From the NCBI GenBank assembly GCA_905207515.1, contig CAJLLK010000001.1:12782-76781 (forward strand): a stretch of DNA of 64,000 bases, read 5' to 3'. This stretch comes from an uncultured Christensenella sp. Its GTDB lineage: Bacteria; Bacillota; Clostridia; Christensenellales; UBA1242. Shown here in pieces: positions 4,719-61,092 of the stretch. Numbering within the stretch: the first letter of the stretch is position 1; each line of letters begins with the position of its first letter. Under the pieces are notes generated by a model. It saw only the letters and a program-made list of their open reading frames with translations, had not been told where the DNA came from and made no database searches. The position numbers and the translations under genes were made by a program.

Positions 4719-4808
4719 GGTATTATGCAAAAAATTTTTTATTGCATAATATAACAAGATGTATTGCAAAAATATGCATAATACACAACATGTTGTGGTG
4801 TTATGCAA
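4719..4808. repeat. TTGCATAAYAC motif cluster a: four copies forming two imperfect palindromes
   Basis: GGTATTATGCAA (4719-4730, inverted), TTGCATAATATA (4742-4753), TGCATAATACACAAC (4775-4789), GTTGTGGTGTTATGCAA (4792-4808, inverted). Confidence 0.75.
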
Positions 4809-4831
4809 TTTTGACAACATCTTCAAACCAT

Positions 4832-4860
4832 TTGCAAATTTAAATTTTTTGTGATAAAAT
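4832..4860 (+). promoter_or_regulatory. ygjP-like gene promoter placed for a leaderless transcript
   Basis: TTGCAA (4832-4837), 17 nt ending in TGa, TAAAAT (4855-4860), 6 nt (AAAAAT), ATG at 4867. No SD. Confidence 0.6.
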
Positions 4861-4866
4861 AAAAAT

Positions 4867-5496
4867 ATGAAAATTGAAATCATCAAAGAGAAAAGAAAAA
4901 CCATGGTGCTGAAAGTTTTGGATGAAGAACACGCTGTTTTGAAAGCACCAAAGAGTTTTAGTGATGCAAAAATAAAAACATTTTTGGATAGCAAGGCAAA
5001 ATGGCTGCAAAAAACGTGTGACAAGCTTAAATCACGCGATGATTTGGCTGCTAAATTTGACTTTGACAGGTTTGTTTACCTGGATGGCAAACAAATGATG
5101 TCGGTGAACGAAATCGCTTTTGATTTTTCCAAACTTTCTGAAAGCGCCAAGAGAAAAGCGATAAAAAATTATTATAAAACACTGTTTGTGGAAGTGGCTA
5201 AACTGGCAGAAAACCTTTCGGCAGAAACTGGCTTGAAGTTTAAAGAACTGAAAATGACAAATTCGGTCAGAGTTTGGGGGAGTTACAGCTCAAACGGAGT
5301 TATGAAATTGAATTGGAAACTTTTGATTTTGCCGCGCAAGCTCGCAGAATATGTCATCTTTCACGAGTTGTGTCACAGCAGGCACATGAACCACAAACCA
5401 CAATTTTGGCGTGCTGTCGAAAAAGTTTGCCCAGACTATAAGTTGCGAAAGAAAACTTTGAACGATTTTTCTTTTGTTTTAAGGCACGAATTTTAA
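4867..5496 (+). CDS. YgjP-like (DUF45 / M48-like) metal-dependent hydrolase
   Basis: C-terminal motif YVIFHELCHSRHMNHKPQFW and N-terminal EKRKTMVLKV...VLKAP pattern typical of the YgjP family. No SD upstream. Confidence 0.85.
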   Translation: MKIEIIKEKRKTMVLKVLDEEHAVLKAPKSFSDAKIKTFLDSKAKWLQKTCDKLKSRDDLAAKFDFDRFVYLDGKQMMSVNEIAFDFSKLSESAKRKAIKNYYKTLFVEVAKLAENLSAETGLKFKELKMTNSVRVWGSYSSNGVMKLNWKLLILPRKLAEYVIFHELCHSRHMNHKPQFWRAVEKVCPDYKLRKKTLNDFSFVLRHEF

Positions 5497-5507
5497 AGTT
5501 AGCCGCC

Positions 5508-5536
5508 GCATATTTTAAACAAAGTTACAGATACTA
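5508..5536 (+). promoter_or_regulatory. Candidate forespore-type (sigma-G/F-like) promoter of spoIVB
   Basis: GCATA (5508-5512), 17 nt, GATACTA (5530-5536), 7 nt before the ATG region. Compare the sigma-G consensus as I recall it, GHATR-N17/18-CATxxTA. spoIVB is sigma-F/G dependent in Bacillus. Confidence 0.35.
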
Positions 5537-5543
5537 AGGGCAT

Positions 5544-6719
5544 ATGAAAAGGTTTTATGTCACTGTTTTTTCTTTGTTGTTTTTGACTTTTTTATGTCTT
5601 TCGGTTCTCGCTCCGGTTCAGCTTCTCAACCAATTTGAAGGCGGATTTTTGGCTGATTATGACGATGTTGATGTTGTAAACGAAAACAAAACTTTTGGAC
5701 CGCTCATCAAAACCGAATTGAAAGCGAAAGACCAACAAGTTGGCGGGCAGAAAAACAAACAAGGCGAAATTGTTTTCAAACTTTTTGGTTTCATTCCAAT
5801 CAAAAAAGTGGATGTTGTTTTGGCGAGCGATGACGATTATTATGTCGGCGGAGTTCCTGTTGGGCTGGCAATAAACACCGGCGGAGCAATTGTCATTGGC
5901 GACGAAAACGGCAGCGTTTTGAAAGAAGGCGACATTATCACACAAATAAACGGTGTTGAAGTGAAAAATTTGAACCAAATTTCAGAAGTTTTGCAAAATT
6001 GCGGCGAAGAAGTCGAGATTGTATATTTGCGAAAAAATCGACCAATCAAGGCGCTTTTAAAAACTCACAAAGATGATGAAACAGGGCGTTTGAAACTCGG
6101 TCTTTGGGTCAAAGACGACGTCACTGGTGTTGGAACTTTGACGTTTGTCAACAAAACCACTCACAAATATGGCGCTTTGGGACATCCGATTGTCGAAGCC
6201 AACAGCGGAAACACAGTTCCGGTGTCGACTGGGAGTTTGTATGAATGCAACTTGATTGGCATAAACAAAGGCAAGAAAAATGACCCGGGCGAACTGAAAT
6301 GCGTGTTTGTTTCCAATTCAAAAAGCAAGGGCGACATTGAAAGCAACACAAAATTTGGGATAAGTGGCTATTTGAAAGACACAAAGGGTCTTGTTGACGA
6401 AAACTTGACGGCAAAACTCGGCGGCAGACTGGGAGTGAAACTTGGAAAAGCCAAGATTGTTTCCAGCATCAGCGGAATAAGAGAAGAATATGACATCGAA
6501 ATAATCAAAGCCAACTATCAAAAAACCGCAAACGACAAAAGTTTGGTGTTTAGAGTGAAAGATAAACGACTTTTGGAGCTCACGGGCGGAATTGTTCAGG
6601 GCATGAGCGGCTCACCAATCATGCAAGACGGAAAAATCGTTGGCGCGGTCACACACGTCTTTTTAAATGACCCAACAAAAGGCTATGGCGTTTACAGCGA
6701 CTGGATGGTGGCTGAATAA
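5544..6719 (+). CDS. spoIVB: SpoIVB peptidase (S55), stage IV sporulation signalling protease
   Basis: Signal/TM N-terminus, PDZ-like region (GDIITQINGVEVKN), and catalytic region GMSGSPIMQDGKIVGAVTHVFLNDPTKGYGVY. Confidence 0.9.
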   Translation: MKRFYVTVFSLLFLTFLCLSVLAPVQLLNQFEGGFLADYDDVDVVNENKTFGPLIKTELKAKDQQVGGQKNKQGEIVFKLFGFIPIKKVDVVLASDDDYYVGGVPVGLAINTGGAIVIGDENGSVLKEGDIITQINGVEVKNLNQISEVLQNCGEEVEIVYLRKNRPIKALLKTHKDDETGRLKLGLWVKDDVTGVGTLTFVNKTTHKYGALGHPIVEANSGNTVPVSTGSLYECNLIGINKGKKNDPGELKCVFVSNSKSKGDIESNTKFGISGYLKDTKGLVDENLTAKLGGRLGVKLGKAKIVSSISGIREEYDIEIIKANYQKTANDKSLVFRVKDKRLLELTGGIVQGMSGSPIMQDGKIVGAVTHVFLNDPTKGYGVYSDWMVAE

Positions 6720-6725
6720 ATTTTC

Positions 6726-6777
6726 ACTATATTTAGTTGCATAATACTGCATACCACAACTAAATATAGTTTTTTTG
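6726..6777 (+). terminator. spoIVB terminator-like hairpin (14-bp stem, 17-nt loop, T7 tail)
   Basis: ACTATATTTAGTTG (6726-6739) pairs with CAACTAAATATAGT (6757-6770), followed by TTTTTTT. The loop and stem edge carry two copies of the TTGCATAA motif. Confidence 0.55.
6737..6760 (+). repeat. TTGCATAAYAC motif cluster b: two tandem copies
   Basis: TTGCATAATAC (6737-6747) and TGCATACCACAAC (6748-6760), inside the spoIVB terminator hairpin. Confidence 0.65.
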
Positions 6778-6830
6778 TTGAAATAATTTTAAAAATTTCT
6801 GCATTTTTGTTTTGTTTTCTGTTTTGTTTT

Positions 6831-6839
6831 TGTTATACT
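6831..6839 (+). promoter_or_regulatory. Extended -10 element 7 nt upstream of the recombinase ATG (leaderless candidate)
   Basis: TGtTATACT (6831-6839), 7 nt (TATAGAC), ATG 6847. No SD and no clear -35. Confidence 0.5.
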
Positions 6840-6846
6840 TATAGAC

Positions 6847-7881
6847 ATGAAACAACTTTCTTATTACGAAAAGCGTGACCTGAAAAACATGCAGATGATT
6901 GGCAATTATCTTCAAAAATTGCCGACTTATTGTTACGACTTCTTCACTGGCATTGAAAACAACACTTCTTCTTTGACCAGGCTCAATTATGCCATGGATT
7001 TGTCTGTGTTTTTTGATTATTTGGAAAAATATGTTTTCAGAAAGCCAAAAACGGACATTTCTCTGCAAGATTTGGACACTTTGAAAGCCAAAAACATTGA
7101 AAACTTTTTGTCTTATCTTTCTTATTATCAAATTGATGACAAGCTTTTGAAAAACACCGAACGCGGAAAAGCCAGAAAGCTTGCCAGCGTCAGAAGTTTT
7201 TTTAAATATCTTTTCAATCATGACATGCTTATCTCAAACGTGGAAAGCAAGGTTCAAACGCCGAAACTTCACAACAAAGAGATAATTCGTTTGGAAAAAG
7301 ATGAAGTTGACAGAATGCTTGATGCGGTTCAAGCTCCAACAACTTTCACAGAAAGGCAAAAGCACTACAACAAAAACACGCAAGAGCGAGACAATGCCAT
7401 CGTCACACTTTTTTTGGGAACGGGCATAAGAATTTCGGAACTTGTCGGTTTGAATGTCGACGACTTTGACTTTGCGCAATATGCTTTCAAAGTGACCAGA
7501 AAAGGCGGCAATCAGGCGATTTTATATTTCTCTAAAGAAGTGGCTGACGCACTTGAAAAATGGTTGGAAAAGCGAAAGACCTTGAAGCTTGATGAAAATG
7601 AAAAGGCTATGTTTGTTTCGCTTCAAAACAGAAGAATTTGTGTGCGTGCAGTTGAAAATTTGGTTAAAAAATATGCCAAAGAAGGCAGCCCGCTCAAAAA
7701 AATTTCGCCACACAAGTTGCGCTCGACTTTCGGCACAAATCTTTATCGCGAAACAAAAGATATTTACATTGTTGCAGATGTTTTGGGGCACAAAGATGTC
7801 AACACAACCAAAAAGCATTACGCCGCAATCAATGAAGATATGCGAAAATCTGTTGCGGGGAAAGTGAAAATTCATCAATGA
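6847..7881 (+). CDS. Tyrosine site-specific recombinase, XerS/XerC-like
   Basis: RDNAIVTLFLGTGIRISELVGL, TRKGG, HKLRSTFGTNLY and LGHKDVNTTKKHY give the R..HxxR..Y catalytic set. By eye, length and N-terminal layout resemble streptococcal XerS. Confidence 0.85.
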   Translation: MKQLSYYEKRDLKNMQMIGNYLQKLPTYCYDFFTGIENNTSSLTRLNYAMDLSVFFDYLEKYVFRKPKTDISLQDLDTLKAKNIENFLSYLSYYQIDDKLLKNTERGKARKLASVRSFFKYLFNHDMLISNVESKVQTPKLHNKEIIRLEKDEVDRMLDAVQAPTTFTERQKHYNKNTQERDNAIVTLFLGTGIRISELVGLNVDDFDFAQYAFKVTRKGGNQAILYFSKEVADALEKWLEKRKTLKLDENEKAMFVSLQNRRICVRAVENLVKKYAKEGSPLKKISPHKLRSTFGTNLYRETKDIYIVADVLGHKDVNTTKKHYAAINEDMRKSVAGKVKIHQ

Positions 7882-8024
7882 AATTCAAATTTCTGCTTTT
7901 AGAAAAATTCGGAAGCAATAAGACAAAATTCGACAAAATAGGATGAAATATCATGTCAAATATTGTTGCTTTTTAAAAAATGTTGTGGTAGAATTGGATG
8001 ATTTAAACAAACGGAGGTAATTTT

Positions 8025-9275
8025 ATGTTTGAGTTAAAAAAAGAAAAAACGAAGGTTGAGATTTCTCTCTCAATCGACAACGCTGAATGGGAACAAGGTG
8101 TTCAGAAAGTTTATGAGAAAACAAAAGACAAATTTAATGTTGTTGGCTTTAGAAAAGGTCATGCACCAAGAAAGGTTATTGAAAAGCAATATGGCGACAG
8201 CGTCTTTTTTGAAGACACCGTAGAATATTTTGTAAACAAAACTTTGGATGAAGTGCTTTACAAAAATCCAGATTTGGAACCTGTCACGATGCCAAAAACT
8301 CAATTTGACAGCTACACTGTGAAAGACGGGCTCAAAATGAAAATCTTTTTTGATATTGTTCCAGATTTTGAGTTGTGCCAATATAAAGGCGTGAAAATTG
8401 AAGCTCATCACAGCGATGTCAGTGAAAAAGAAGTTGACCACGAAATTCATCACATCTTGGAAGAACACGCAAAATATGAAAGTGTTGACAGAGTGGCAAA
8501 GAAAGGCGACAGCCTTGTGATTGATTTCAAAGGATACATAGACGGTGTGGCATTTGAAGGTGGAGAAGCGGAAAATTATCCACTTGAAATCGGCTCTCAC
8601 ACTTTTATCGACAATTTTGAGGACCAACTTATCGGTCACAAAAAAGGCGAAGAAGTGGATGTCAATGTGACATTCCCAGAAGATTATGCAGCAGAAGAAT
8701 TTAAGGGCAAAAAAGCTCTCTTCAAGGTGACAATCAAAGATGTTAAAGAAATGACTTTGCCAGAATTTAATGACAAATTTGTTTCAGATACGACAGAATT
8801 TGAAACGGTTGACGAGTATAGAAAACACATATCTGCTCATATTCAAACTATGAAAGACAATCAAATGGACCAAGAAATTGAATATAACATTCGAGAATAT
8901 CTTGTTAAAAATACAAATGTTGAAATTCCACAAGAAATGGTGGACGCACAAGTTGAAAGTGATTTGAGAAGAATGAGAGAAACTTTGAAAGGTTATGGCA
9001 TCACTTTGGAAGATTATCTTGGTCAGTCTGGCGTGACACTTGAAGATTATGTTAAGAATGCAAAGATAAGAACTTTAAATGCAATCAAAACAAGATATAT
9101 CTACAGAAAACTTATTGCTGAAAACAACATTGAAGTTTCGGCAAAAGAACTTGAAGAAGCAACCAAAGGCATGACTGACCCACATGATGTTACAAGAAGA
9201 GAAAACGAATTGTTGCTTGAAAAGCTTCATAAATTTTTGAAAGAAAACAATAATATAGAAGTGATTGAAGAATAA
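8025..9275 (+). CDS. tig: Trigger factor
   Basis: 416 aa. FRKGHAPRKVIEKQYG ribosome-binding signature, a central FKBP-like region, and position upstream of clpP-clpX. Strong SD ACGGAGG. Confidence 0.95.
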   Translation: MFELKKEKTKVEISLSIDNAEWEQGVQKVYEKTKDKFNVVGFRKGHAPRKVIEKQYGDSVFFEDTVEYFVNKTLDEVLYKNPDLEPVTMPKTQFDSYTVKDGLKMKIFFDIVPDFELCQYKGVKIEAHHSDVSEKEVDHEIHHILEEHAKYESVDRVAKKGDSLVIDFKGYIDGVAFEGGEAENYPLEIGSHTFIDNFEDQLIGHKKGEEVDVNVTFPEDYAAEEFKGKKALFKVTIKDVKEMTLPEFNDKFVSDTTEFETVDEYRKHISAHIQTMKDNQMDQEIEYNIREYLVKNTNVEIPQEMVDAQVESDLRRMRETLKGYGITLEDYLGQSGVTLEDYVKNAKIRTLNAIKTRYIYRKLIAENNIEVSAKELEEATKGMTDPHDVTRRENELLLEKLHKFLKENNNIEVIEE

Positions 9276-9302
9276 TCACACGTTAAAAGGAGGTGATTTT
9301 TT

Positions 9303-9896
9303 ATGTTAATTCCTATGGTCGTCGATCAAACGGGAGCAAGTGAAAGATCTTATGACATCTACTCCAGACTTTTGGAAGATAGAATTATCTTTTTGACTGG
9401 CGAAATCACCGATGCAACGGCAAATGTTGTTATCGCACAGCTCATTTATTTGGAAGGAAAAAACCCTGACAAAGACATTTATCTTTATATAAACAGCCCA
9501 GGTGGCTCAGTTTCGGCAGGAATTGCCATTTACGACACGATGAACTATATCAAATGCGATGTTTCGACAATCTGTGTCGGACTTGCCGCTTCCATGGGCG
9601 CATTTTTGCTCTCTAGCGGAACAAAAGGCAAACGTTTTGCATTGCCAAACAGTGAAATCATGATTCATCAGCCGCTTGGCGGAGCTCAAGGTCAAGCAAG
9701 CGACATTGAAATTCAGGCAAAGCATATCAAAAAGACCAAAAGCATGCTCAACAGAATTTTGAGCGAAAACACAGGCAAATCTTTGGAAGAAATTGAAAAA
9801 GACACTGACAGAGACAATTATATGACCGCAGAAGATGCCAAAAAATATGGTTTGATTGACAACATCTTTGTCACAAGAAAAGCAAAAAAAGATTAA
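9303..9896 (+). CDS. clpP: ATP-dependent Clp protease proteolytic subunit
   Basis: [29 protein letters not shown] (active Ser), MIHQPLGG (His). Confidence 0.97.
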
Positions 9897-9908
9897 AGGC
9901 GGTTTTGA

Positions 9909-11198: not shown

Positions 11199-11318
11199 AA
11201 TTTTTTAATTATCTAAATTTGATTGACATAAACTTAAAAAAAAGGTAAACTATTCTCAAGTGGTTTGCCTTTTATTTTTCGTCATAAGGGCAACACTTGT
11301 TAAAAGGGGAGAAATATA

Positions 11319-12908: not shown

Positions 12909-12953
12909 TGAAATTTTGCTTTGACAAAGCATAAAAAATAAAAGGAGAAAATT

Positions 12954-13295: not shown

Positions 13296-13305
13296 TGGAG
13301 AAATT

Positions 13306-19202: not shown

Positions 19203-20498
19203 ATGAATTTTACACCTAAACAAATTGTAAATGAATTGGATAAATATATTGTTGGACAAACCAAAGCCAAAAAAGCGGTGGCGGTTGCACTTCGAAATCG
19301 CTATAGAAGAAGCAAGCTTCCTGCTGAAGTTCGCGACGAAATCACACCAAAAAACATTGTTATGAGCGGACCTACTGGTGTCGGAAAGACCGAAATTGCT
19401 CGCCGTCTTGCTAAGCTTGTTGGCGCGCCATTTGTCAAAGTTGAAGCGACGAAATATACTGAAGTAGGCTATGTCGGCAGAGATGTTGAAAGCATGGTCA
19501 GAGATTTGGTTGAAGTCGCTGTCAGAATGGTCAAAGACCGCAAGAAGAAAGAAGTTGAAGACAAAGTTATGCCGATTGTCGAAAGCAAACTTGTCGATGC
19601 CCTTTTCCAAAATCGCAGAGTGACAATGGTTGACGTCAACAGAGACAGCTTGTTTGAAGAACTCCACAGCGGAAAATGCGAAGAGGAGACGGTTGAAGTT
19701 GTTGTTTTGGAAACTCCAAAGCCTATGATGGCTTTTGGCTCGGGCGAAATCAATTTGGGCTCGATGTTTGACAGCCTTGCACCACAAAAACATAAGAAAA
19801 AGAAGATGACGGTCAGACACGCAAGAGAGGTTTTGTTGCAAGAAGAAAGCGACAAGATTATCGACATGGACAACGTCAATGAAGAAGCGATTTCTTTGGC
19901 AGAAGAGCAGGGCATTATCTTTATCGATGAAATCGACAAAATCATCGGAAAAAGCCAGGCGACAAACAGCGCTGATGTTTCGCGAGAAGGCGTGCAAAGA
20001 GACATTTTGCCGATTGTGGAAGGCAGCACCGTTCCAACAAAATATGGCAATGTGAAAACAGACTTCATTCTTTTCATTGCTGCGGGGGCTTTCCATGTGG
20101 CAAAAATGGAAGACATGATTCCTGAACTTCAAGGAAGATTTCCTATCAGGGTGGAACTTGAAAGTTTGACAAAAGAGGATTTCAAAAAGATTTTGAGCAC
20201 TCCAAAAAACGCGGTGACAGTGCAATATTCAAACCTTTTGAAAGTCGACAACATCAATCTTGTGTTTAAAGATGACGCTTTGGACGAAATCGCGGAAATG
20301 GCAGAAAGAGAAAACGAAACAAGCGAAGACTTGGGCGCAAGACGACTTCACACAATCATGGAAGCGCTTTTGGAAGATGTTTCTTTCAATGCCACAGGCG
20401 AACATCCAATGCTTGACATCATTATCGACAAAAATTATGTTGACAATGTTTTCAAAGACAGACAATATAAATTTGATTTGAAGAAATATGTTTTATAA
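19203..20498 (+). CDS. hslU: ATP-dependent protease ATPase subunit HslU
   Basis: TPKQIVNELDKYIVGQ, Walker A GPTGVGKTEIARRLA, Walker B IIFIDEIDK. Confidence 0.95.
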   Translation: MNFTPKQIVNELDKYIVGQTKAKKAVAVALRNRYRRSKLPAEVRDEITPKNIVMSGPTGVGKTEIARRLAKLVGAPFVKVEATKYTEVGYVGRDVESMVRDLVEVAVRMVKDRKKKEVEDKVMPIVESKLVDALFQNRRVTMVDVNRDSLFEELHSGKCEEETVEVVVLETPKPMMAFGSGEINLGSMFDSLAPQKHKKKKMTVRHAREVLLQEESDKIIDMDNVNEEAISLAEEQGIIFIDEIDKIIGKSQATNSADVSREGVQRDILPIVEGSTVPTKYGNVKTDFILFIAAGAFHVAKMEDMIPELQGRFPIRVELESLTKEDFKKILSTPKNAVTVQYSNLLKVDNINLVFKDDALDEIAEMAERENETSEDLGARRLHTIMEALLEDVSFNATGEHPMLDIIIDKNYVDNVFKDRQYKFDLKKYVL

Positions 20499-20506
20499 TC
20501 AAAATA

Positions 20507-20545
20507 TTGTGTATTATGCAAGAAAAATTTTGCATAATACCACAA
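20507..20545. repeat. TTGCATAAYAC motif cluster c: inverted pair with 8-nt spacer
   Basis: TTGTGTATTATGCAA (20507-20521), gaaaaatt, TTGCATAATACCACAA (20530-20545). The right copy ends 13 nt before the tcdA ATG. Confidence 0.75.
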
Positions 20546-20558
20546 GAAAAGGTGTTTT

Positions 20559-23329: not shown

Positions 23330-23409
23330 TTGCATAACACCATTTGTTTAAAATGTTGCATAATACCATATTTTGTGTGACTGCTTTTGCATAATACGCA
23401 AGATATAGC
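23330..23409 (+). repeat. TTGCATAAYAC motif cluster d: three direct copies
   Basis: TTGCATAACACC (23330-23341), TTGCATAATACC (23356-23367), TTGCATAATACGCAAGATATAG (23387-23408). Confidence 0.75.
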
Positions 23410-23593
23410 CTATCTCTTCGCAAAACTTGTGTTTTGCGAATAAATTTAAAGCCTTATTTTCTAAAAAATTTTGTTGTCTCCCATAAAATTTTGCCTATAA
23501 AATTATAAAAAGTTGCAAACAAAAAGATTTAATTGAAAGTTTAGAACAGCTTTTCTGACAAATTAGCGCCCAAATTTAAACCAAGCCCAACTA

Positions 23594-28944: not shown

Positions 28945-29670
28945 TTAAAACAAAGTTTTGTTGATTTCATACATAATAATACTTCCGCTAACGCCAGCGT
29001 TTAGGCTTTCAATGCCTGGCATCATCGGAATTTTTACGCTTTGTTTACACAAATTTGAAATTTCTTTGCTGACACCCTGACCTTCGTTTCCAATCACAAC
29101 GCCCACCTGTTTGTCAGTTTTGAAATTGAAGATGTTTTCTCCATTCATGTCGCATTTCAACAAATTTAAGTTGTTTTTTTGCGAGAAAGCGACAAATTCT
29201 TCTCTTGGAAGCTCAAAAACCTTGCTGTCAAAAACGGCTCCGACAGAACTTCGAATAAGTTTCGCATTAGATTTTTTGACTGAATCGACAAGATAGACAA
29301 ACGAAAAACCGCTTGCAAAAGCACTTCGAATGAGCGTTCCAACATTGCCTGGGTCTTGAAGTCCATCCAAAACAAGAAAATTTGTTTTTGGCGCAACCAC
29401 AACATCTTGTGTGTAGTATGCAACGCATAATACTTTCTGTGGTGTTTTTGTGTCTGAAAGTTGTTCAATTGTTTTGTCGTCAGTCTTAAAAATTTTGCCA
29501 CTAAAATCAAATGGCAGACTGTCTAAACTTGTCAAGATGCAATCAGTTTTGATGGAATTATTTTTTATGGCGTCTTTGATGATTTTGACATTATCCAAAA
29601 AAAGCAAAGACTTGTTTTCTCGTTTTTGCTTTTTAAGTGTCAATATGAAGTTTTTTGTCGCCTTTTCCAT
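28945..29670 (-). CDS. TrmH/SpoU family RNA 2'-O-methyltransferase
   Basis: LDGLQDPGNVGTLIRSA, VVIGNEGQGVS, IPMMPGIESLNAGVSGSIIMYE. Confidence 0.85.
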   Translation of the reverse strand: MEKATKNFILTLKKQKRENKSLLFLDNVKIIKDAIKNNSIKTDCILTSLDSLPFDFSGKIFKTDDKTIEQLSDTKTPQKVLCVAYYTQDVVVAPKTNFLVLDGLQDPGNVGTLIRSAFASGFSFVYLVDSVKKSNAKLIRSSVGAVFDSKVFELPREEFVAFSQKNNLNLLKCDMNGENIFNFKTDKQVGVVIGNEGQGVSKEISNLCKQSVKIPMMPGIESLNAGVSGSIIMYEINKTLF

Positions 29671-30756: not shown

Positions 30757-30914
30757 GGCCGTAATCTCCTTTTTCTTATTTTATTTTTGTTTTTAAAAAC
30801 AAAAAATTGGTAGGACGCAAAAAGTTCTACCAATCACAAATCAAAAATTATTAAAATTTTTGACCACATCAAAACGAAATTCGATGGGTGAGAAGTGAAC
30901 TTCTGCTTTCTAAC
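30757..30914 (-). promoter_or_regulatory. infC leader (about 158 nt) with internal terminator-like hairpin; candidate L20-responsive attenuator
   Basis: Long 5' UTR between the promoter and the ATT start. Hairpin TTGGTAGaac-loop-gtcCTACCAA (30807-30833) followed on the minus strand by TTTTTTGTTTTT. Context matches the Bacillus L20 leader; I cannot verify the covariance model by eye. Confidence 0.4.
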
Positions 30915-40616: not shown

Positions 40617-40886
40617 ACTGGGCTAGATGGGGAGTTAGCGGTGCCCTGTAACCTGCAATCCGCTACAGCAGGGTTGAACGTTTGCCTAGGTGCAGTTTGG
40701 TTGAAGATGTGCACAAGGTTTTGATGTTGAAATCAAGGTCTTATGCAACCAGCTCCTTCGAACCATGTCAGGTCCTGACGGAAGCATCATTAAGAAGATC
40801 AGTTGATGTGCCATGAGGAAGCTTTGATGGAGTTGAAATTTTGTGAGGCAGTCAGTCAAATTGCAACAAAGCATTCGCCCAGCATG
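40617..40886 (+). ncRNA. ffs: Signal recognition particle RNA, large Bacillus type with Alu domain
   Basis: Domain IV core CATGTCAGGTCCTGACGGAAGCA. The 5' segment GGGCTAGATGGGGAGTTAGCGGTGCCCTGTAACC is Alu-like. Terminal helix CTGGGC (40618-40623) pairs with GCCCAG (40877-40882). A perfect promoter lies upstream and a terminator downstream. Length about 270 nt. Confidence 0.88.
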
Positions 40887-46404: not shown

Positions 46405-46424
46405 AGCTCTCCTTTATCAACATT

Positions 46425-46474
46425 TTGTGTATTATGCTTGCATACCACCTTGCATAACACACAAGATATAGTGT
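46425..46474. repeat. TTGCATAAYAC motif cluster e: one inverted and two direct copies, plus an ACAC-N8-GTGT palindrome
   Basis: TTGTGTATTATGC (46425-46437, inverted), TTGCATACCACC (46438-46449), TTGCATAACACACAA (46450-46464), ACACAAGATATAGTGT (46459-46474). Confidence 0.75.
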
Positions 46475-47745
46475 TATTCAACATATTCAAACGAAATGTC
46501 TTTAATCACAACAGTGTCGCCTTCTTTCAAGCCTTTTTCTTTCAACAAGTCAATCACTCCCATCTCTTTGAGCTTGGTCTGAAAATAGGCAAACGAAGCT
46601 TGGTCAGAAACCACAACACCTCTTATCAAATTTTCAATTCTGCCGCCTGAAAGCTCAAAGCTGCCGTCGTCGTGACGTGTGATTTTGATAGATGAAAAAT
46701 CTTTCTTGTCAAAATCGGTTTCTTCAACTGTTAAAGGTGGTTTTTTCGGAATTTTCTTCAAATTTTCCAAAATTTTTCGCTTCAAAGTTTCAATTCCGTC
46801 ACGCGTGTAAGAAGAAATGGTCAGATATTCTTTAATTTTTGTTTTTGTCACAAAATTGTCGATTTTTTGTTTCAACGTTTCCTCATCCAACAAATCACAC
46901 TTTGAAAACACCACAATTTGTTTTGTTTTGGCAAGGTCGGCGTTATATTTTTTCAGCTCTCTGTTGATTGTTTCAAAGTCGCTGACTACATTGCGCCCTT
47001 CGCTTTCAGAAATGTCAATCAAATGCACAATAAGTCGAACGCGTTCCACGTGCTTGAGAAAATAATGCCCCAAACCCAAGCCTTCGCTCGCACCTTCAAT
47101 CAACCCTGGAATATCCGCAACCACAAATGTTTCGCCCAAAACTTCGCACACGCCAAGATTTGGATAAATTGTTGTGAATGGATAGTTTGCAATTTTTGGA
47201 TTGGCATTTGAAATGACTGACAAAAGTGTCGATTTCCCCACGTTTGGAAAGCCAACAAGCCCGACATCTGCAATGGTTTTAAGCTCCAAAACAACTTCTT
47301 TTGTTTCGGTTGTTTCGCCCATTTGAGAAAAACTTGGAGCTTGTTTGATTGACGATTTATAGAAAGCGTTTCCGTGGCCGCCAAAACCGCCTTTGAGAGC
47401 CACAAAAATGGCTCCGTCTTCATTTAAGTCGGCAATAATTTTGTCGGTTTTTGGATTGATTAACACCGTTCCAGTCGGAACAAGAATGATTTCGTCTTTC
47501 CCACTTTTTCCGGTCTGATTTTTCTGATGACCATCTTCGCCATTTTCTGCAACAAACTTTTTCTTATATCTAAAAGGCAAAAGTGTGTTCATTTCGTTGG
47601 TGGCTTTGAAAATTATGTTTCCGCCCTTGCCGCCGTCGCCACCGTCTGGCCCACCATTTGCCGTTTGTGCCGTGCGCAAAAACGATGTCGAGCCTTTGCC
47701 GCCATTTCCTGCTTTTATTGAGATTTTAACTCTGTCTAAAAACAT
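46474..47745 (-). CDS. obg: GTPase Obg/CgtA (start refined to ATG 47745)
   Basis: MFLDRVKISIKAGNGGKG, G1 GFPNVGKST, DIPGLIEGA, C-terminal TGS-like domain. The longer ORF would overlap nth. Confidence 0.95.
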   Translation of the reverse strand: MFLDRVKISIKAGNGGKGSTSFLRTAQTANGGPDGGDGGKGGNIIFKATNEMNTLLPFRYKKKFVAENGEDGHQKNQTGKSGKDEIILVPTGTVLINPKTDKIIADLNEDGAIFVALKGGFGGHGNAFYKSSIKQAPSFSQMGETTETKEVVLELKTIADVGLVGFPNVGKSTLLSVISNANPKIANYPFTTIYPNLGVCEVLGETFVVADIPGLIEGASEGLGLGHYFLKHVERVRLIVHLIDISESEGRNVVSDFETINRELKKYNADLAKTKQIVVFSKCDLLDEETLKQKIDNFVTKTKIKEYLTISSYTRDGIETLKRKILENLKKIPKKPPLTVEETDFDKKDFSSIKITRHDDGSFELSGGRIENLIRGVVVSDQASFAYFQTKLKEMGVIDLLKEKGLKEGDTVVIKDISFEYVE

Positions 47746-51669: not shown

Positions 51670-51840
51670 CCACCTTTTTAATTCTCAAATTTTTATTCGA
51701 CAACTTTGAAAAATAATTTTAAAAAATAATTATAATTTTGTAAAAAAATCGAAAATTGTCTACTTTTATTTTGTAAATCGAAAATTTTGTGTTATACTAA
51801 AATCAAATTAATTATCTTCAAAAGAAGAAAAGGAGTGCTT

Positions 51841-53084: not shown

Positions 53085-53102
53085 TAAACTATTGGAGTTT
53101 CA

Positions 53103-53960: not shown

Positions 53961-53970
53961 AATCACATCT

Positions 53971-54489: not shown

Positions 54490-54490
54490 A

Positions 54491-55123: not shown

Positions 55124-55138
55124 CAAAGGAGAGAAAAG

Positions 55139-55390
55139 ATGATAGAATACAAATTTGACACCCAACTTTTGCTTGAAGGGAAAAACTTGTCTGATGAAAA
55201 AATCAAACAATATATCACAGACAACATCGAAGGAGATTGTTTGTTGGTGGTTGGCGACGACGAAATGATAAGATTGCATTTTCACACAAACACACCTTGG
55301 AAAGTTTTGGAATATTGTGACTCTCTCGGCGACATTCAAGACATTGTTGTCGAAAACATGGAAAGACAAGCAAACGGCTTGAATGGTTAG
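55139..55390 (+). CDS. Stand-alone 83-aa protein matching the segment just after the Dak2 domain of FakA/YloV
   Basis: GDCLLVVGDDEMIRLHFHTNTPWKVLEYCDSLGDIQDIVVENMERQ mirrors the FakA segment GDSLLVV.DE..VKVHVHT..PG.V......G.L...KVENM..Q. Strong SD AAAGGAGAG. Confidence 0.65.
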   Translation: MIEYKFDTQLLLEGKNLSDEKIKQYITDNIEGDCLLVVGDDEMIRLHFHTNTPWKVLEYCDSLGDIQDIVVENMERQANGLNG

Positions 55391-55403
55391 TTTAAAACAA
55401 AAA

Positions 55404-55430
55404 AAATAAAGCAAAACCGCTTTATTTTTT
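55404..55430. terminator. Bidirectional terminator between convergent genes
   Basis: AAATAAAGCaaaaccGCTTTATTTTTTT. Confidence 0.65.
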
Positions 55431-55443
55431 TATCTAATTTTTT

Positions 55444-56382
55444 CTAAAAGAAGATTGTCAAAAACATGCCTGTCGCCACCCCGATGCAATATTGCAAAAG
55501 CAAAATTCCAAAGTTTTGAAGCATATGTTTTTTGTTTCGGCTGAACAAAATGAACAATCCCACGCCTGCACCCGCAGAAAGCCCTGCAACCAACGCCGGA
55601 AACGACAGCGTTCCATAGATGAACAGTTCCACAAGCAAAACTGAAGATGCACAATTTGGAATGAGCCCAATCAAGCTTGCAATCAAAACCTGAAGATACA
55701 TGTTTGTTGTCAGCAAATTTTCAAGCGCTTCCGTTCCACAATAACCGATAATCAAGTTGATAATTAAAGTCGCCACAAAAATGTAAATCACAATGCTGAA
55801 TGTGTGTTTAAATGCGTCCAAGAAGATGTTGTCTGCGCAGCAATCACCGTGTTCGTGCCCGCAGTCAGATTTACAATGGTCGCAATGCACATGACCGCAC
55901 TCATGTTTGTGACTGTGCGGTTCATTTGAAACCACTTCGACATTGACAGCGTGTTGCTTTTTGCGACTTGAAAAAATCTTGACGCCCAAATCGACCAAAT
56001 ACCCCCAAAAAATGGCAAAAACAATCTTCACGCCAATCAAAATCAGCATATCGATGATGCTGTCTGGGTTTGAAATCATGATTGGAATTGCTTCGTCAGA
56101 TGTTGCCACAAAAACTGCCACCAAAGTGCCGAGCGAGACCTTTTTCTCTGAATAAAGGTCAGCAATCACCGAAGAAAACCCGCACTGTGGCACACATCCC
56201 AAGAAAGCGGCATATAAAACACTGGTTTTTCGGTTTTTAGCCAAAAATCCACTGAATTTGTGGCTGTGGTCATGCGACAAAAAAGAAACCAAAAGGTATG
56301 CCAGAAAAAGAATAGGCAAAACCTTTAAGCAATCCAAAACCGCATCATATAATCTGTCTGCAAAAATTTCCATAACCGCCAT
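55444..56382 (-). CDS. Putative 10-TM heavy-metal exporter (ArsP_2-like); start ATG 56382 or 56373
   Basis: FLGCVPQCGFSSVIADLYSEKKVSLGTLVAVFVATSDEAIPIMIS matches my recollection of the ArsP_2 family core. Central loop HSHKHECGHVHCDHCKSDCGHEHGDCC is His/Cys-rich. Confidence 0.6.
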   Translation of the reverse strand: MAVMEIFADRLYDAVLDCLKVLPILFLAYLLVSFLSHDHSHKFSGFLAKNRKTSVLYAAFLGCVPQCGFSSVIADLYSEKKVSLGTLVAVFVATSDEAIPIMISNPDSIIDMLILIGVKIVFAIFWGYLVDLGVKIFSSRKKQHAVNVEVVSNEPHSHKHECGHVHCDHCKSDCGHEHGDCCADNIFLDAFKHTFSIVIYIFVATLIINLIIGYCGTEALENLLTTNMYLQVLIASLIGLIPNCASSVLLVELFIYGTLSFPALVAGLSAGAGVGLFILFSRNKKHMLQNFGILLLQYCIGVATGMFLTIFF

Positions 56383-56452
56383 TATTATAACACAAGTGAT
56401 AAAAAATGCAAATTTTTTTTATAAATTCTTTAATTTTAAAACAGTCAAAAAG

Positions 56453-56481
56453 TTGACTATTTTGTCAAGCCTATGTAAAAT
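56453..56481 (+). promoter_or_regulatory. ABC transporter gene promoter
   Basis: TTGACT (56453-56458), 17 nt, TAAAAT (56476-56481); the leader carries SD TAGGAG. Confidence 0.55.
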
Positions 56482-56511
56482 AAACTTTATCAAAACATTT
56501 AGGAGTTTTAA

Positions 56512-58623
56512 ATGCAAAACAAAGAACTTGAACTCATCAACGTAAACAAAAAATACAAGCTTTCAAACAAAGAAAGTTTTCAAGCGCTGTATGACATTTC
56601 AATTTCATTTGACAAAGGCGAACTTGTTTCCATTGTCGGCGAAAGCGGAAGTGGAAAATCTACGCTTATGAACCTTATTGGCGGTCTTGACAGCGATTTC
56701 ACTGGCACAATCATCTCTGGCGGAGAAAACTTGGGCAAACTTTCTGACAAACAGCTTGACAAATATCGAAAAAACAAAGTCGGCTTTGTTTTTCAATCGT
56801 TCAATCTGATTTCTCATCTTTCAATTTTGGATAACGTCACCCTTGCTCTCACACTTTCAAATGTTGGAGAAAAAGAAAAAATTTCCCGCGCAACCGAAAT
56901 CTTGAAACGTGTCGGACTTGAAGACCAACTCAAGAAAAAACCGACGCAGCTTTCTGGCGGTCAAAAGCAAAGAGTTGCCATCGCCCGTGCGCTTATCAAC
57001 GACCCTGACATCATCATCGCCGACGAACCAACTGGTTCGCTTGACAGTGGCACTTCCATGCAAATTTTGGAAATTTTGAAAGAGATTGCTGACAGCGGAA
57101 AATTGGTCATCATGGTCACCCACTCAGAAAAAGTGGCTTCAGTTTCTTCAAGAGTGGTCGAAATTTCTGATGGAAGAATAATAAGTGACCACCAAAATCC
57201 AAATTACAAGAAAAACAAACCAAAAATTTTAGAAGAAAAACAAGAAAATTCGACAGAAAACAAAAAACAAGTCAAAAACTTTAAAGAAAAACAAAATCTC
57301 TCAATGTGGTCGGCAATCAAACTTTCTTTTCACAACATGTGGGCAAGCAAAGTGAAAAACTTTCTTATGGCATTTGGCGTTGCCATCGGAATTGGCAGTT
57401 TGATTTTGATGATGTCGTTCAGCTCAGGCATAACAGACTATATCAACAACCTTATGAAATCATATTCCGACCCGACAATTGTGACGATTTCAAAGAAAAG
57501 CGAATCCACCGACCCAATAGAATATTTCAACAATGCTTCTTTTACGGATGAAGAAATTTCAACATTAATAGAAAACATAAACGCTTATCTCGCAGAACAA
57601 AATCTTGATTTTACTGTTGCAAATGGTGAAAATGGCAATGTTGATTATGGATTTGGAATGTTCACAGCTTTGTCAGATGCAAAAGTAAACTTTAGTCCAA
57701 GCGGAAATTATATTCAAAACGAAGAAGACCCTGACTATGACATTGTTTCACAAAAAATTTATTATTTATATTCTATTCCGCCTTATTATACCCAACAAAA
57801 TGTTATAGATGGAGAAATGAGCTCTGCTCCTGTTTTGGACAATGACGGAGACATGATTGGTGGCGGAGGTTTTATGTTTACTCCAACCATTTCAAGGCTG
57901 TTTGGAGAAGATGAAGATATGCTTGGAAAAGAAGTTGAAATTTCATTTACGATAGGTGGAAACAAACTTGATTTTAAAGATACAATTTGCGGTGTTATGG
58001 ACACTTCTGTCATGTCAGGTTTCCTTGTTGTTTATGTTGATTATGACTATTTGCAATATCTTTTCCAACAAAACAACGTAGACTTTGCCCCTACCACCAT
58101 TTACATCCAAACTCCTTCTGAAGAAATCACCAATGCGATAAACAGATATATTTCCACCACCGAAAACTATGTTGGCTCAATTGAAGAACAACTTGCAAAC
58201 ATGTTCAACAACATGCTCAGCATCATCGGAACTTCACTTGTTGTCATTTCATGCATTTCACTTGTTGTTTCCGCAATGATGATTTTGGTGGTTTTGTATA
58301 TGAGTGTCACCGAACGCACAAAAGAAATCGGCGTTCTCAAGTCCATTGGTGCACGAAGAAAAGACATCAAGCGAATTTTCACATCTGAAAGCTTTTTGGT
58401 CGGCGTTTTGAGTGGTGTCTTTGGCATTTTGTTTAATCTGATTTTGACACTGGTGGTTTGGCTTGTTTTGACCAGCACAATTGGCTTGGCGCCGATTTCA
58501 TATCGCTGGTGGTATTTTGTGGTTGCTCTTGGTGTTTCTGTTGTCATAAGCATGCTCGCCGGGCTTTATCCAGCAAGCAAAGCAGCCAAACTTGACCCTG
58601 TTGAAAGCTTAAGAAGAGAATAA
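56512..58623 (+). CDS. Fused ABC transporter ATPase-permease (MacB/FtsX type)
   Basis: N-terminal Walker A GESGSGKST, signature LSGGQKQR, Walker B IIIADEPT. Then a TM helix, a periplasmic-type domain of about 300 aa, and a C-terminal FtsX 3-TM block (ERTKEIGVLKSIGARRKDI). Confidence 0.9.
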   Translation: MQNKELELINVNKKYKLSNKESFQALYDISISFDKGELVSIVGESGSGKSTLMNLIGGLDSDFTGTIISGGENLGKLSDKQLDKYRKNKVGFVFQSFNLISHLSILDNVTLALTLSNVGEKEKISRATEILKRVGLEDQLKKKPTQLSGGQKQRVAIARALINDPDIIIADEPTGSLDSGTSMQILEILKEIADSGKLVIMVTHSEKVASVSSRVVEISDGRIISDHQNPNYKKNKPKILEEKQENSTENKKQVKNFKEKQNLSMWSAIKLSFHNMWASKVKNFLMAFGVAIGIGSLILMMSFSSGITDYINNLMKSYSDPTIVTISKKSESTDPIEYFNNASFTDEEISTLIENINAYLAEQNLDFTVANGENGNVDYGFGMFTALSDAKVNFSPSGNYIQNEEDPDYDIVSQKIYYLYSIPPYYTQQNVIDGEMSSAPVLDNDGDMIGGGGFMFTPTISRLFGEDEDMLGKEVEISFTIGGNKLDFKDTICGVMDTSVMSGFLVVYVDYDYLQYLFQQNNVDFAPTTIYIQTPSEEITNAINRYISTTENYVGSIEEQLANMFNNMLSIIGTSLVVISCISLVVSAMMILVVLYMSVTERTKEIGVLKSIGARRKDIKRIFTSESFLVGVLSGVFGILFNLILTLVVWLVLTSTIGLAPISYRWWYFVVALGVSVVISMLAGLYPASKAAKLDPVESLRRE

Positions 58624-58642
58624 AAATCGAAAAAGGTATCTT

Positions 58643-59296
58643 ATGATAAATGTAAAAAGATTTTTGAAAGAAAACTCTGATTTGCGATATGCCGAATTCA
58701 ATAAAAAATTTATTAACACACGCTATCTTATCATCGGAGTTCGTCTTCCAACATTGCAGAAATTTGCAAAGGAAATTGAGCCTGAATATATTGAATTTGA
58801 TGAAAATTTGTCTCATGAAGAAATCATGTTGTACATTTATTGTGCCGGCTGCTTTAAAACAGAAGATGAACAACTTGAATATCTTCAAAACATCTTGCCT
58901 TACATCGACAATTGGGCAACCTGCGACTGCACAGGAGCATTAAAAAAGTTGAAAGGCGAAAAATCTTTTCAATTCTTTTCCAACCTCATAAAAAGCGATA
59001 AAGAATTTGAAATTAGGGCTGGAATAATTGGTTTCATGAAAAACTTTCTTAAAACAGGAAAATTAAATGAGATTTTGGCTCAAATCAGAGAAGTAAAGTC
59101 AGACGCATATTATGTCAAAATGGGCATTTCATGGTTTTATGCAGAGCTTTGCGCCTTTAACAGTGAACTTGCTGTCGAAGAAATCAAAAACACACAAGAC
59201 AAATTCATAAGAAACAAATCAATTTCAAAAGCCAAAGAAAGTTTCAGAGTCTCTGCCACAACAAAAGCAGAATTGGAAAAACTTAGAATGAAATAA
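58643..59296 (+). CDS. DNA alkylation repair protein (AlkD-like HEAT repeats)
   Basis: FLKENSDLRYAEFNKKFINT...IGVRLPTLQKFAKEI and IDNWATCD resemble the DNA_alkylation family. Confidence 0.7.
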   Translation: MINVKRFLKENSDLRYAEFNKKFINTRYLIIGVRLPTLQKFAKEIEPEYIEFDENLSHEEIMLYIYCAGCFKTEDEQLEYLQNILPYIDNWATCDCTGALKKLKGEKSFQFFSNLIKSDKEFEIRAGIIGFMKNFLKTGKLNEILAQIREVKSDAYYVKMGISWFYAELCAFNSELAVEEIKNTQDKFIRNKSISKAKESFRVSATTKAELEKLRMK

Positions 59297-59335
59297 AATT
59301 TTCAATCAAAAAATTTGCTGATTTTAAACAATAAA

Positions 59336-59367
59336 AAAGAGAGCATCAAACGCTCTCTTTGTTTTTT
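59336..59367. terminator. Bidirectional terminator between the alkD-like gene and rplS
   Basis: AAAGAGAGCatcaaacGCTCTCTTTGTTTTTT. Confidence 0.75.
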
Positions 59368-59716
59368 AGTTGTTGTCAGCTGCTTTAACCTTGGCTGCTT
59401 TGCCAGTGAGTTCTCTGACATAATAGAGTTTTGCTCTTCTTGGCTTACCTTTTCTCACCACTTCAATTTTGGCAATTTTTGGTGAATGAACAGGAAAAGT
59501 TTTTTCAACTCCAACGCCATAAGAAATTTTTCTTACAGTGAAAGTTTCTCTGATTCCGCCATTTTTTCTGGCAATCACAACGCCTTCAAAAGCTTGCAAT
59601 CTTTCTTTGTCGCCTTCTTTGATTGTGACTGTAACTTTCACAGTGTCACCAATGGCGAATTCTGGAACAGATTCTTTCATGTTTTCTCTTTCCAATTGGT
59701 CAATAATATTTGCCAT
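59366..59716 (-). CDS. rplS: 50S ribosomal protein L19
   Basis: [35 protein letters not shown]. Confidence 0.97.
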
Positions 59717-59803
59717 GACTTATCTCCTTTTTTCAGATTTTCGACATGATGCTCATAAAGTAAAAACTAAAGCGGAACACCCGAAGTCTTTTTGATTATA
59801 ACA
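59717..59803 (-). promoter_or_regulatory. rplS extended -10 promoter plus 5' UTR of about 70 nt (candidate L19 leader)
   Basis: Minus strand: TGTGtTATAAT (-10 at 59800-59795), followed by an untranslated leader before SD AAAGGAGA. L19 leaders are known upstream of rplS in Firmicutes; structure not verified. Confidence 0.35.
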
Positions 59804-59853
59804 CAACCAAACACACAAAAACAAGTGTTTTTACAAAAAAATTTGAAAACATT

Positions 59854-60210
59854 TCAAAAAGCGTTTTCAATGTGGTCGATTTGGTCGCCCGAAACTTCAA
59901 TAACATCAAACCGTGTGTCGTTCAGGCTCTTGTTTTTCAGCATAAGATAAACTTCAGCAACTTTTCTGATTTTGTTTTGTTTTTGAGCGTTTACGGCTTC
60001 AATCGGCCTGCCATATGCAAAAGTCGAGCGATTTTTAACTTCAACAAAAACAATAACGCCATCTTTTTCGGCAATGATGTCGATTTCGCCCAGCTTGATT
60101 TTAAAATTTGTCTGCAAAATTTTATATTTTTTCTTTTTCAAAAAATTTGCCGCTAAAATTTCGCCCTTGTCGCCATTTATTTTGTTGTTAATTTTTGCAA
60201 GGTCTTTCAA
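59854..60210 (-). CDS. yraN: YraN family (UPF0102) endonuclease-like protein
   Basis: GEILAANFLKKKKYKILQTNFKIKLGEIDIIAEKDGVIVFVEVKNR. Confidence 0.9.
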   Translation of the reverse strand: MKDLAKINNKINGDKGEILAANFLKKKKYKILQTNFKIKLGEIDIIAEKDGVIVFVEVKNRSTFAYGRPIEAVNAQKQNKIRKVAEVYLMLKNKSLNDTRFDVIEVSGDQIDHIENAF

Positions 60211-60225
60211 AACACTCTCCTTTTG

Positions 60226-61038
60226 TCAATCTAAAGTGATTTTGCCCAGCCTGCCTTTTCGAAAATCGTCGACAACACTTTTTGCTGTGCGTTCAAGGTC
60301 AAGCTCGCCGCCGTTTGTGACAAACTTGCGCAGCGTTGCGATTTCTTCAAGTGTGGTTTTGTTTTCGTATCTTTTTTTGACATTTTCTGGATATTGCTCA
60401 AGTAAAATTTTCAAAAGGTCATTTGCCAAATCGACAAAATCCAAAATTTCATCTCTCACACTGCCGACAAATGCAAGTTTTTTGGCGGTTTCTTGATTTT
60501 CGATGTTTGGATAAAGTGTTCCAGGTGTGTCATAGACTTCAATTCCGCCGCCTATAGGAAGCCAAAGCCCGTGTTTTGTGACGCCTGCTTTGTTCCCCGT
60601 GATTGCCTTGGCTTTTTTGCAGAGATTGTTCACCAAAGTGCTCTTGCCACAATTTGGAATGCCAACCACCATTGTTCTGATGCTTGGTTTAATTCCCTTG
60701 TTTTTATATTTTTCAATCTTTTCAGAAGCAAGCGTTTTAATCTTTTCGACAATCAAATCAGATTTGCCTGAAAGAGTGCTGTTAAACAACAAAAAGTCGC
60801 TTGTCTTTGATTTAAACTGTGGCAAGAGGGCTTTGATTTTCTTTTCGTCTGCCATGTCAATTTTGTTGAAAACATAAAGCACAGGCTTGTTTTGGGTGAT
60901 TTCGTTGAGCGACGGGTTTATCGAAGCCAGTGGAATGCGCGCGTCAAGAATATAAGTGACAACATCGACTTTTTTGAGCTGTTCGCTTATATCTTTCAAT
61001 GCTTTATGCATATGACCTGGAAACCAATTGATTTTCAT
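60226..61038 (-). CDS. rbgA: Ribosome biogenesis GTPase A (YlqF/RbgA); start refined to ATG 61038
   Basis: MKINWFPGHMHKA canonical start, circularly permuted GTPase motifs NKIDM...GIPNCGKST...DTPG. Confidence 0.93.
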   Translation of the reverse strand: MKINWFPGHMHKALKDISEQLKKVDVVTYILDARIPLASINPSLNEITQNKPVLYVFNKIDMADEKKIKALLPQFKSKTSDFLLFNSTLSGKSDLIVEKIKTLASEKIEKYKNKGIKPSIRTMVVGIPNCGKSTLVNNLCKKAKAITGNKAGVTKHGLWLPIGGGIEVYDTPGTLYPNIENQETAKKLAFVGSVRDEILDFVDLANDLLKILLEQYPENVKKRYENKTTLEEIATLRKFVTNGGELDLERTAKSVVDDFRKGRLGKITLD

Positions 61039-61053
61039 ACAATCTCCTATATT

Positions 61054-61092
61054 TTGTGTATTATGCATTGCATATCACACTATATTTGGTGT
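61054..61092. repeat. TTGCATAAYAC motif cluster f: inverted pair, plus an ACAC-N8-GTGT palindrome
   Basis: TTGTGTATTATGCA (61054-61067, inverted), TTGCATATCACAC (61068-61080), ACACTATATTTGGTGT (61077-61092). Confidence 0.75.

Follow-up and report, generated by a model that had tools for sequence, protein, structure and literature searches.

DNA-binding systems specific to the replication terminus are known in few model bacteria, namely MatP/matS, XerD/XDS, RTP/Ter and Tus/Ter. We know of none in Clostridia. Here we analyze a 64,000-nucleotide stretch of DNA from an uncultured Christensenella sp. (assembly GCA_905207515.1, contig CAJLLK010000001.1, positions 12,782 to 76,781), called "the window" throughout, whose intergenic regions carry a dispersed family of short repeats with the 9-mer GCATAAYAC. 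The motif is a real, conserved family of composite palindromic DNA sites, which are most likely bound by a protein and which are concentrated around a dif-like palindrome. According to summaries in PMC10945525 and PMC11894783, the protein sites matS and XDS, which are palindromes or half-dif sequences, occur in the terminus region alone, with matS densest near dif.

The family was proposed in a sequence-only reading of the window, which listed 16 copies at six loci. Re-reading every locus recovered all 16 at the same coordinates, and the list can be extended by additional arms at 46470-46480 and 61087-61101, and by a seventh locus (29397-29445) within an rlmB-like open reading frame (ORF). When the pattern TTGCATAAYACMCAA was counted with up to two mismatches, 12 matches were found in the window versus 1.23 expected, and none of 100 shuffled controls reached 12 (maximum 5). 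The 9-mer alone occurs 13 times. Thus, the dispersed family is genuine and non-random. Intergenic DNA makes up 8.1% of the window, and arrays occupy 6 of the 37 gaps of at least 40 bp. The description of copies as mostly intergenic and mostly inverted stands, with the in-ORF locus as the exception.

A position weight matrix built from 49 copies describes a longer motif than the one first recognized, with ~22-25 nt (TTGCATAAYACACAA-rATAT-nG(TGT)) and an information content of ~29 bits across 22 positions. Its core is a 16-bp palindromic box, ACACAAAATATnGTGT, at motif positions 10-25. Pairs of copies that appear to lie tail to tail are a single such box whose symmetric flanks, TTGCATAAT and ATTATGCAA, extend it to a 34-bp palindrome. 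Head-to-head pairs, in turn, are two boxes joined via the linker ATTATGCA-n-TGCATAAT. Strict boxes occur seven times in the window (0.96 expected), six of them at motif loci. In the window and 38 loci from the same clade, adjacent strict boxes are 32-34 bp (n = 6) or 43-44 bp (n = 3) apart and occur at no other distance, which contradicts the earlier view that spacing varies freely. These two spacing classes differ by approximately one helical turn, which fits boxes held on the same face of the helix. Paired boxes could be occupied by one oligomeric protein or by two cooperating proteins on that face.

Sequence comparison indicates that selection maintains the sites in one clade, which comprises uncultured Clostridia of the gut (Candidatus Caccovivens and relatives). 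The window encodes SpoIVB, SpoIIIA proteins, NifS/NifU, HslU and a large signal recognition particle (SRP) RNA. Metagenome contigs from the human gut with 98.7-100% identity to the window encode proteins identical to its own, and its relatives carry the labels "uncultured Clostridia" or Candidatus Caccovivens. The source is therefore a spore-forming, uncultured species of gut Clostridia. Loci from other genomes or contigs that were compared with the window are labeled with L and a number. A scan of 185,579 species (one genome each) for the exact pattern TTGCATAAYACNCAARATRT produced 75 loci. Approximately 43 are single matches spread over unrelated phyla, at roughly chance level, and the ~32 that have the palindromic context of the family all come from this one clade. 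Of these 32, 22 align to the window at 65-83% identity and have the motif in the same spacers, which are nifU|tgt (eight species), trmD|rbgA, hslU|tcdA and the spacer beside the Xer gene. Orthologous arrays are also found upstream of padR and in pheS|pheT, and four relatives have an array in ruvA|ruvB, where the window has none. In alignments of trmD|rbgA and nifU|tgt, the arrays are nearly invariant and their flanks are unalignable. Among seven strains of the window species, the obg|yhbY array is near-identical, with a single nucleotide polymorphism (L008). The consensus is constant across genomes of 26-43% GC, which suggests selection by a conserved trans-acting factor.

The in-ORF array has a box, CCACAACATCTTGTGT, and a linker, GTAGTATGCAACGCATAATAC, that together span amino acids 76-92 of the rlmB-like product. 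It involves no insertion relative to orthologues. The same synonymous codon choices keep it in L013 and L063, and it is not kept in L081. A second in-gene copy is present in L089 (1829-1849; same species, ~47 kb to the right of dif), where a head-to-head pair of B-type arms, GGTAGTATGCAATGCATACTACG, lies within the truB ORF.

Other searches bear on how far the family extends. An independent palindrome pattern gave five matches in metagenomes. Two map to the window region, two others correspond to recurrent terminus-proximal sites (the spoIIAA site in L094 and pheS|pheT in L093), and L095 is unplaced. A scan of viral contigs gave two matches, both chance-like and in coding DNA. The 20-mer lies in two related viral contigs (L001, 7242-7261, and L002, 861-880) within conserved-looking phage coding sequence and has no palindromic partner, and these matches are probably due to chance. 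A text search of the literature for motif strings returned chance primer matches only.

The window also contains a likely dif site. A dif-like core (23413-23444) lies between the convergent genes nifU and tgt, where GC skew changes sign (~23.4 kb). It reads CTC-TTCGCAAAA-CTTGTG-TTTTGCGAA-TAA and has 9-12-bp inverted arms about a 6-bp center (12-6-12 when extended). The window and ten relatives each have a single copy of the core at this locus, and its form in the clade is (A/T)CTA-TTCGCAAAA-N6-TTTTGCGAA-TAG(A/T). Its arms resemble those of difSL and difH (PMC5357621). It shares with XerS/difSL-type modules the inverted arms about a center, the terminus position and a single linked Xer gene, but the center of difSL is 11 bp rather than 6 bp. 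No XerCD-type dif was detected in the window when the Escherichia coli and Bacillus subtilis types and CATAA-N5-8-TTATG were searched. The palindrome probably serves a single-recombinase (XerS/XerH-style) system as the site at which chromosome dimers are resolved. Its presumed partner is the single Xer-type tyrosine recombinase, encoded at 6847-7881 (+), for which XerS is the best NCBIfam model (183.8 bits, below the 267-bit cut-off). In two AT-rich relatives (L032 and L044), the dif-like core is ~1 kb from the Xer-like gene.

Motif copies hold a fixed position next to this core. Three direct copies (23330-23411, +), with starts at 23330, 23356 and 23387, are all aimed at the dif-like site, and the two boxes of this array (23363-23378 and 23396-23411) are 33 bp apart. 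The copy nearest the core starts exactly 30 nt before it in nine species. A second copy is mostly 30-31 nt farther out (26-37 nt), and a mirrored copy is present on the far side of the core in three species. A kinship between the motif and the dif arm was considered and rejected, because the best alignment agrees at 8 of 12 positions, which was judged not significant. To the right of the core, most relatives have a weakly conserved element, AAAATTTTG..(C/T)C.CC..AAAATTT (23455-23500), which may be the tgt terminator or another binding site.

Arrays also adjoin the Xer-like gene, both in the window and in L019, L057 and L085. In the window, two overlapping direct copies (6737-6751 and 6747-6760, within 6727-6769, +) lie between spoIVB and this gene. 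They sit in a hairpin with a 13-bp stem followed by a run of T residues (fold -13.6 kcal/mol, z -5.1) that looks like the spoIVB terminator. The Xer-like gene is co-oriented with spoIVB and tig in the window and inverted in L019, L057, L085-L087 and L100. The window, L057 and L085 keep the array between spoIVB and xer, and L019 and L100 do not.

Matches elsewhere in the clade are concentrated in the same part of the chromosome. Based on contig coordinates, 30 of the 32 clade matches lie within ~105 kb of dif, and the pair at spoVA genes is unplaced. Those outside the window are upstream of spoIIAA-sigF and in ftsY|SDR after smc (both ~80-90 kb from dif), in mnmA|rlmI-like (104 kb), beside serS (~60 kb) and in pheS|pheT (~35 kb), in addition to the spoVA genes. 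Among loci chosen regardless of the motif, those that lie 10-35 kb from dif have 3-5 clusters per 22 kb, and no cluster was found in 20.7 kb of such loci at 80-100 kb. The 8 kb past the right edge of the window have one cluster. A scaffold of the same species is 602 kb long, which means that the enriched zone is a small part of the genome. We infer that the family is regional around the terminus and dif and not genome-wide. Relative to dif, 27 copies on the left point towards it and 12 away, and the numbers on the right are 22 and 17 (49 towards and 29 away in all). This bias stems solely from the dif-adjacent arrays, and elsewhere no polarity is apparent. A fork trap or a signal like KOPS (FtsK-orienting polar sequences) was rejected because polarity is missing away from dif.

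The explanation that we favor, with middling confidence, is that the motif is part of a selected family of composite, sequence-specific protein-binding sites associated with the terminus and dif. The sites would be concentrated within ~100 kb on either side of an XerS-type dif at the replication terminus. Beside dif, two or three phased copies would aim at the core, with the nearest at a fixed 30 bp. By analogy with matS/MatP, XerD/XDS, RTP/Ter and the accessory sequences of cer/psi, the sites might mark the terminus region or organize it, and might help or control Xer recombination within it, and their primary role would be other than switching neighboring genes. Where the sites lie argues against a transcriptional role, since some are between divergent promoters, some follow stop codons, and others are in a convergent gap or within an ORF.

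Several points weigh against this explanation. The regional clustering rests on exact-pattern matches, on synteny and on an assumed genome of much more than 0.6 Mb, and the loci that were read reach 105 kb from dif. The scan pattern was derived from two sites in the window, and 9 of the 32 matches are simply their orthologues. The lack of orientation polarity away from dif makes a polar fork trap unlikely. The arm TTGCATAAT is not explained by any known operator, and the AlphaFold2 model of the candidate binding protein discussed below is too poor for a fold search (pLDDT 49). In three arrays of the window, the proximal arm is aimed at the gene and the array ends 5-20 nt ahead of a Shine-Dalgarno sequence, a placement that could indicate gene control. 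Finally, the close fit of the box to the NrdR consensus, also discussed below, favors an ordinary repressor.

Three further arrays of the window are situated between genes. The two-box site in the hslU|tcdA spacer (20497-20555) has box 1 at 20497-20512 and a weaker box 2 at 20540-20555, with 43 bp between their C4 positions. Its linker copies are at 20507-20521 (-) and 20530-20545 (+), the fold has a z score of -4.2, and orthologues are found in L020, L030 and L042. The obg|yhbY array (46413-46482) has arms at 46425-46439 (-), 46438-46449 (+), 46450-46464 (+) and 46470-46480 (-). Its boxes (46415-46430 and 46459-46474) are 44 bp apart, the obg stop codon falls inside one arm, and the array is found in the relatives L084 and L097. 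The trmD|rbgA array (61044-61101) has arms at 61054-61068 (-), 61068-61082 (+) and 61087-61101 (-) and boxes at 61044-61059 and 61077-61092, which are 33 bp apart, and the trmD stop codon is likewise inside one arm. A decayed copy at 51777-51799 retains five of the six key box positions and matches the 15-mer with three mismatches, and its position is occupied by a full palindrome in L073, L096 and L097.

Because the hexamer CATAAT lies 20-26 nt ahead of three start codons, the motif could be plain sigma-A promoter sequence, with CATAAT as a -10 or extended -10 element, as the sequence-only reading suggested. However, there is no -35 element at 16-18 nt, the register of the TG is off by one base, and a promoter scan does not call the motif. 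Real promoters of this organism are canonical (TTGACA-17/18-TATAAT). The large-type SRP RNA gene (40618-40882, +) has a textbook TTGACA-17-TATAAT promoter and serves as a reference for this style. Moreover, conservation spans at least 22 positions and includes the palindromic partners, and there are copies within an ORF and in a convergent gap as well. In seven species the trmD|rbgA array has a fixed position behind the stop codon of trmD, and it lies a variable 70 to 265 nt from the start of rbgA. We therefore give the promoter proposal almost no credence.

Arrays might instead act as RNA, as intercistronic stem-loops like those of REP (repetitive extragenic palindromic) elements and BIMEs (bacterial interspersed mosaic elements) that affect mRNA stability, processing or translational coupling. 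Several arrays do lie between co-directional genes, and some arms contain the upstream stop codon. The proposed hairpin potential is partly borne out, in that some arrays are predicted to fold (RNA z -1.5 to -5.1) and alternating arms could form alternative hairpins; the REP-like free spacing that went with it is not. However, the arms are conserved in sequence without covariation, and the difference between A-type and B-type arms yields A·G mismatches rather than wobble pairs. Direct copies that cannot pair are found beside dif, past a terminator and ahead of promoters, in places that should be little transcribed. None of the sites overlaps an Rfam family, even at E<0.1. A role as RNA thus seems quite unlikely. 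Elsewhere in the window, the region upstream of infC-rpmI-rplT (30793-30914, -) matches the leader of ribosomal protein L20 below threshold (42.7 bits versus a gathering score of 58.7; E 4.6e-05) and probably holds a genuine, divergent representative.

REP elements and BIMEs are known in hundreds of copies genome-wide, consist of imperfect stem-loop palindromes and are associated with a REP-associated tyrosine transposase (RAYT, a Y1 transposase). The arrays resemble them as extragenic palindromic units that alternate in orientation inside operons, and they are imperfect palindromes with predicted hairpins. A selfish palindromic repeat of this kind, or a MITE (miniature inverted-repeat transposable element), that spreads locally could account for the high information content of the motif (~29 bits over 22 positions). 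It could also account for the gain or loss of whole 35-50-bp arrays between species, as at ruvA|ruvB and at the decayed 51.7-kb site. However, species of 26-43% GC share the same consensus, array positions are orthologous, and seven strains exhibit no presence/absence polymorphism. No target-site duplications were seen, and the in-ORF copy arose without insertion. Abundance is also unlike that of REP elements, at ~1.2 exact-pattern matches per clade genome. No transposase-like product, and hence no RAYT, is present among the called genes of L003 and L085-L100. The earlier classification as a REP-like element does not agree with two phased spacing classes, with orthologous positions at 65-83% coding identity or with the regional distribution. 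We consider a mobile repeat very unlikely.

The sequence-only reading found no regulator consensus that fits the motif. By eye, boxes for sigma-54, sporulation sigmas, DnaA, CodY, Fur/PerR, ARG and PlcR were tried, and none fits. ARG-box-like sequences (TGCATGAATA...) are present upstream of argR in L086 (14821-14850) and L087 (14740-14770) and are distinct from the motif. One consensus does fit. The NrdR box is a 16-bp sequence with highly conserved C4, A6, A8, T9, T11 and G13 and with ACA/TGT flanks (PMC13584703). The 3' half of the motif matches all six key positions, plus the flanks, and 37-49 of the 49 copies carry C, A, A, T, T and G at motif positions 13, 15, 17, 18, 20 and 22. NrdR boxes also require an integer helical-turn separation (PMC12051234). 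Published spacers are 15-16 bp (14-18 bp tolerated) or 24-27 bp, and the two-box spacers here, 16-18 and 27-28 bp, overlap these ranges at their upper edge and follow the same helical-turn logic.

The sites might thus be operators at which a tetramer of NrdR, or another ordinary transcription factor, occupies two boxes and represses or roadblocks adjacent operons, with an expanded regulon that is near the terminus by happenstance. Like NrdR boxes, they are paired 16-bp partial palindromes with permitted spacings approximately one helical turn apart. In addition, three genes of the window (tcdA, yhbY and rbgA) and, in relatives, ruvB have the gene-proximal arm aimed at them. However, no nrd gene adjoins any site in the window or in ~40 clade loci, and none of ~12 recurrent positions is at a ribonucleotide reductase gene. 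Neither an nrdR gene nor an NrdR signature was found in any clade locus compared. In contrast with NrdR sites, those described here are away from ribonucleotide reductase promoters, avoid promoter hexamers (no overlap with -35 or -10 elements), have spacers that are 1-2 bp longer, and include a strongly conserved linker that is foreign to published NrdR sites. Their distance to the downstream gene is not conserved, and they also occur at dif, in a convergent gap and within an ORF. Clustering near dif, with at least seven arrays in the 64-kb window, is unexpected of a regulon. We regard such operators as a real, though unlikely, possibility.

If the sites are instead terminus-associated protein-binding sites, as we favor, the most likely binder is padR-TM (2946-4658, -), with NrdR as the main alternative. 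In this 570-residue protein, a bona fide N-terminal winged helix of the PadR-s2 type (residues 13-88) precedes a long acidic linker, and four transmembrane helices lie at the C terminus. The linker is probably disordered, and its strongly conserved short motifs include YDTSxELKKYRKxKSFSENQIEM and NLPAPKRxSNLEPTYKDMMAKLFE. Among the best 120 of 233 homologues, all are full-length and 50-63% identical, except for one 98% match from the same species, and the three with source names all belong to this clade. On this evidence padR-TM appears restricted to the clade, and it is the sole clade-specific DNA-binding gene in the window.

The gene also has sites upstream. Promoters of padR-TM and a ygjP-like gene diverge from the region between these genes, and the four-copy array at 4716-4808 separates the two promoters. 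The copies of this array are at 4716-4730 (-), 4742-4757 (+), 4774-4788 (+) and 4794-4808 (-), a strict 16-bp box occupies 4783-4798, and the padR-TM -35 element directly adjoins the last copy. An upstream array of 3-4 copies ending beside the -35 element is kept in five species, and the arrangement is conserved in the distant relatives L085-L087 and L100. The fold and dimer organization of PadR-s2 proteins are also those of RTP, the replication terminator protein of B. subtilis (PMC3506622). Operators of the PadR family consist of 4-bp inverted repeats with an 8-12-bp AT-rich spacer (PMC5050560), and AphA, a member of this family, recognizes TGCATAT half-sites (PMC3440409).

A bolder proposal, which we consider doubtful, is a new terminus-organizing system of Firmicutes. 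A membrane-anchored PadR/RTP-like protein, alone or with NrdR, would bind a few dozen composite palindromes within ~100 kb on either side of an XerS-type dif, tether or insulate the terminus, and license Xer recombination via the fixed-distance sites. If the explanation by terminus-associated sites holds, an uncultured gut lineage would have a dense, sequence-defined marker of its terminus domain and a testable candidate protein. It would also have fixed-distance copies beside a single-recombinase dif site, and the family bears an unexpected resemblance to NrdR operators. The more modest explanation by an expanded NrdR-type regulon would be new as well, since the literature consulted here describes NrdR as specific to ribonucleotide reductase genes. 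The analysis also yields a likely dif site and Xer partner for the clade.

Among known systems, REP elements and BIMEs differ from this family in that the latter is regional, has phased spacings and occupies orthologous positions between species. Confinement around dif, as judged by exact-pattern matches and synteny to at most 105 kb, is a feature that the sites share with matS and XDS. Their sequence is unrelated, however, and the motif matches neither the matS consensus GTGACRNYGTCAC nor the XerD half-site of dif. The sites here also differ from matS and XDS in their composite two-box structure and much greater density (~one locus per 9 kb), and MatP is not expected. In comparison with RTP/Ter, the motif bears no relation to the Ter consensus, sites away from dif do not fall into two groups of opposed orientation, and padR-TM has an extra 330-residue linker and four transmembrane helices that RTP lacks. 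Nevertheless, both systems have terminus-proximal sites of two imperfect inverted repeats, and both have a neighboring gene for a winged-helix protein of the PadR/RTP structural class, itself preceded by sites. Accessory sequences at cer/psi differ from the site described here, which is chromosomal rather than plasmid-borne, lacks ARG and ArcA boxes and has its motif at many other loci as well. As in cer/psi, however, putative protein sites are phased on one side of an Xer core and at a fixed distance from it.

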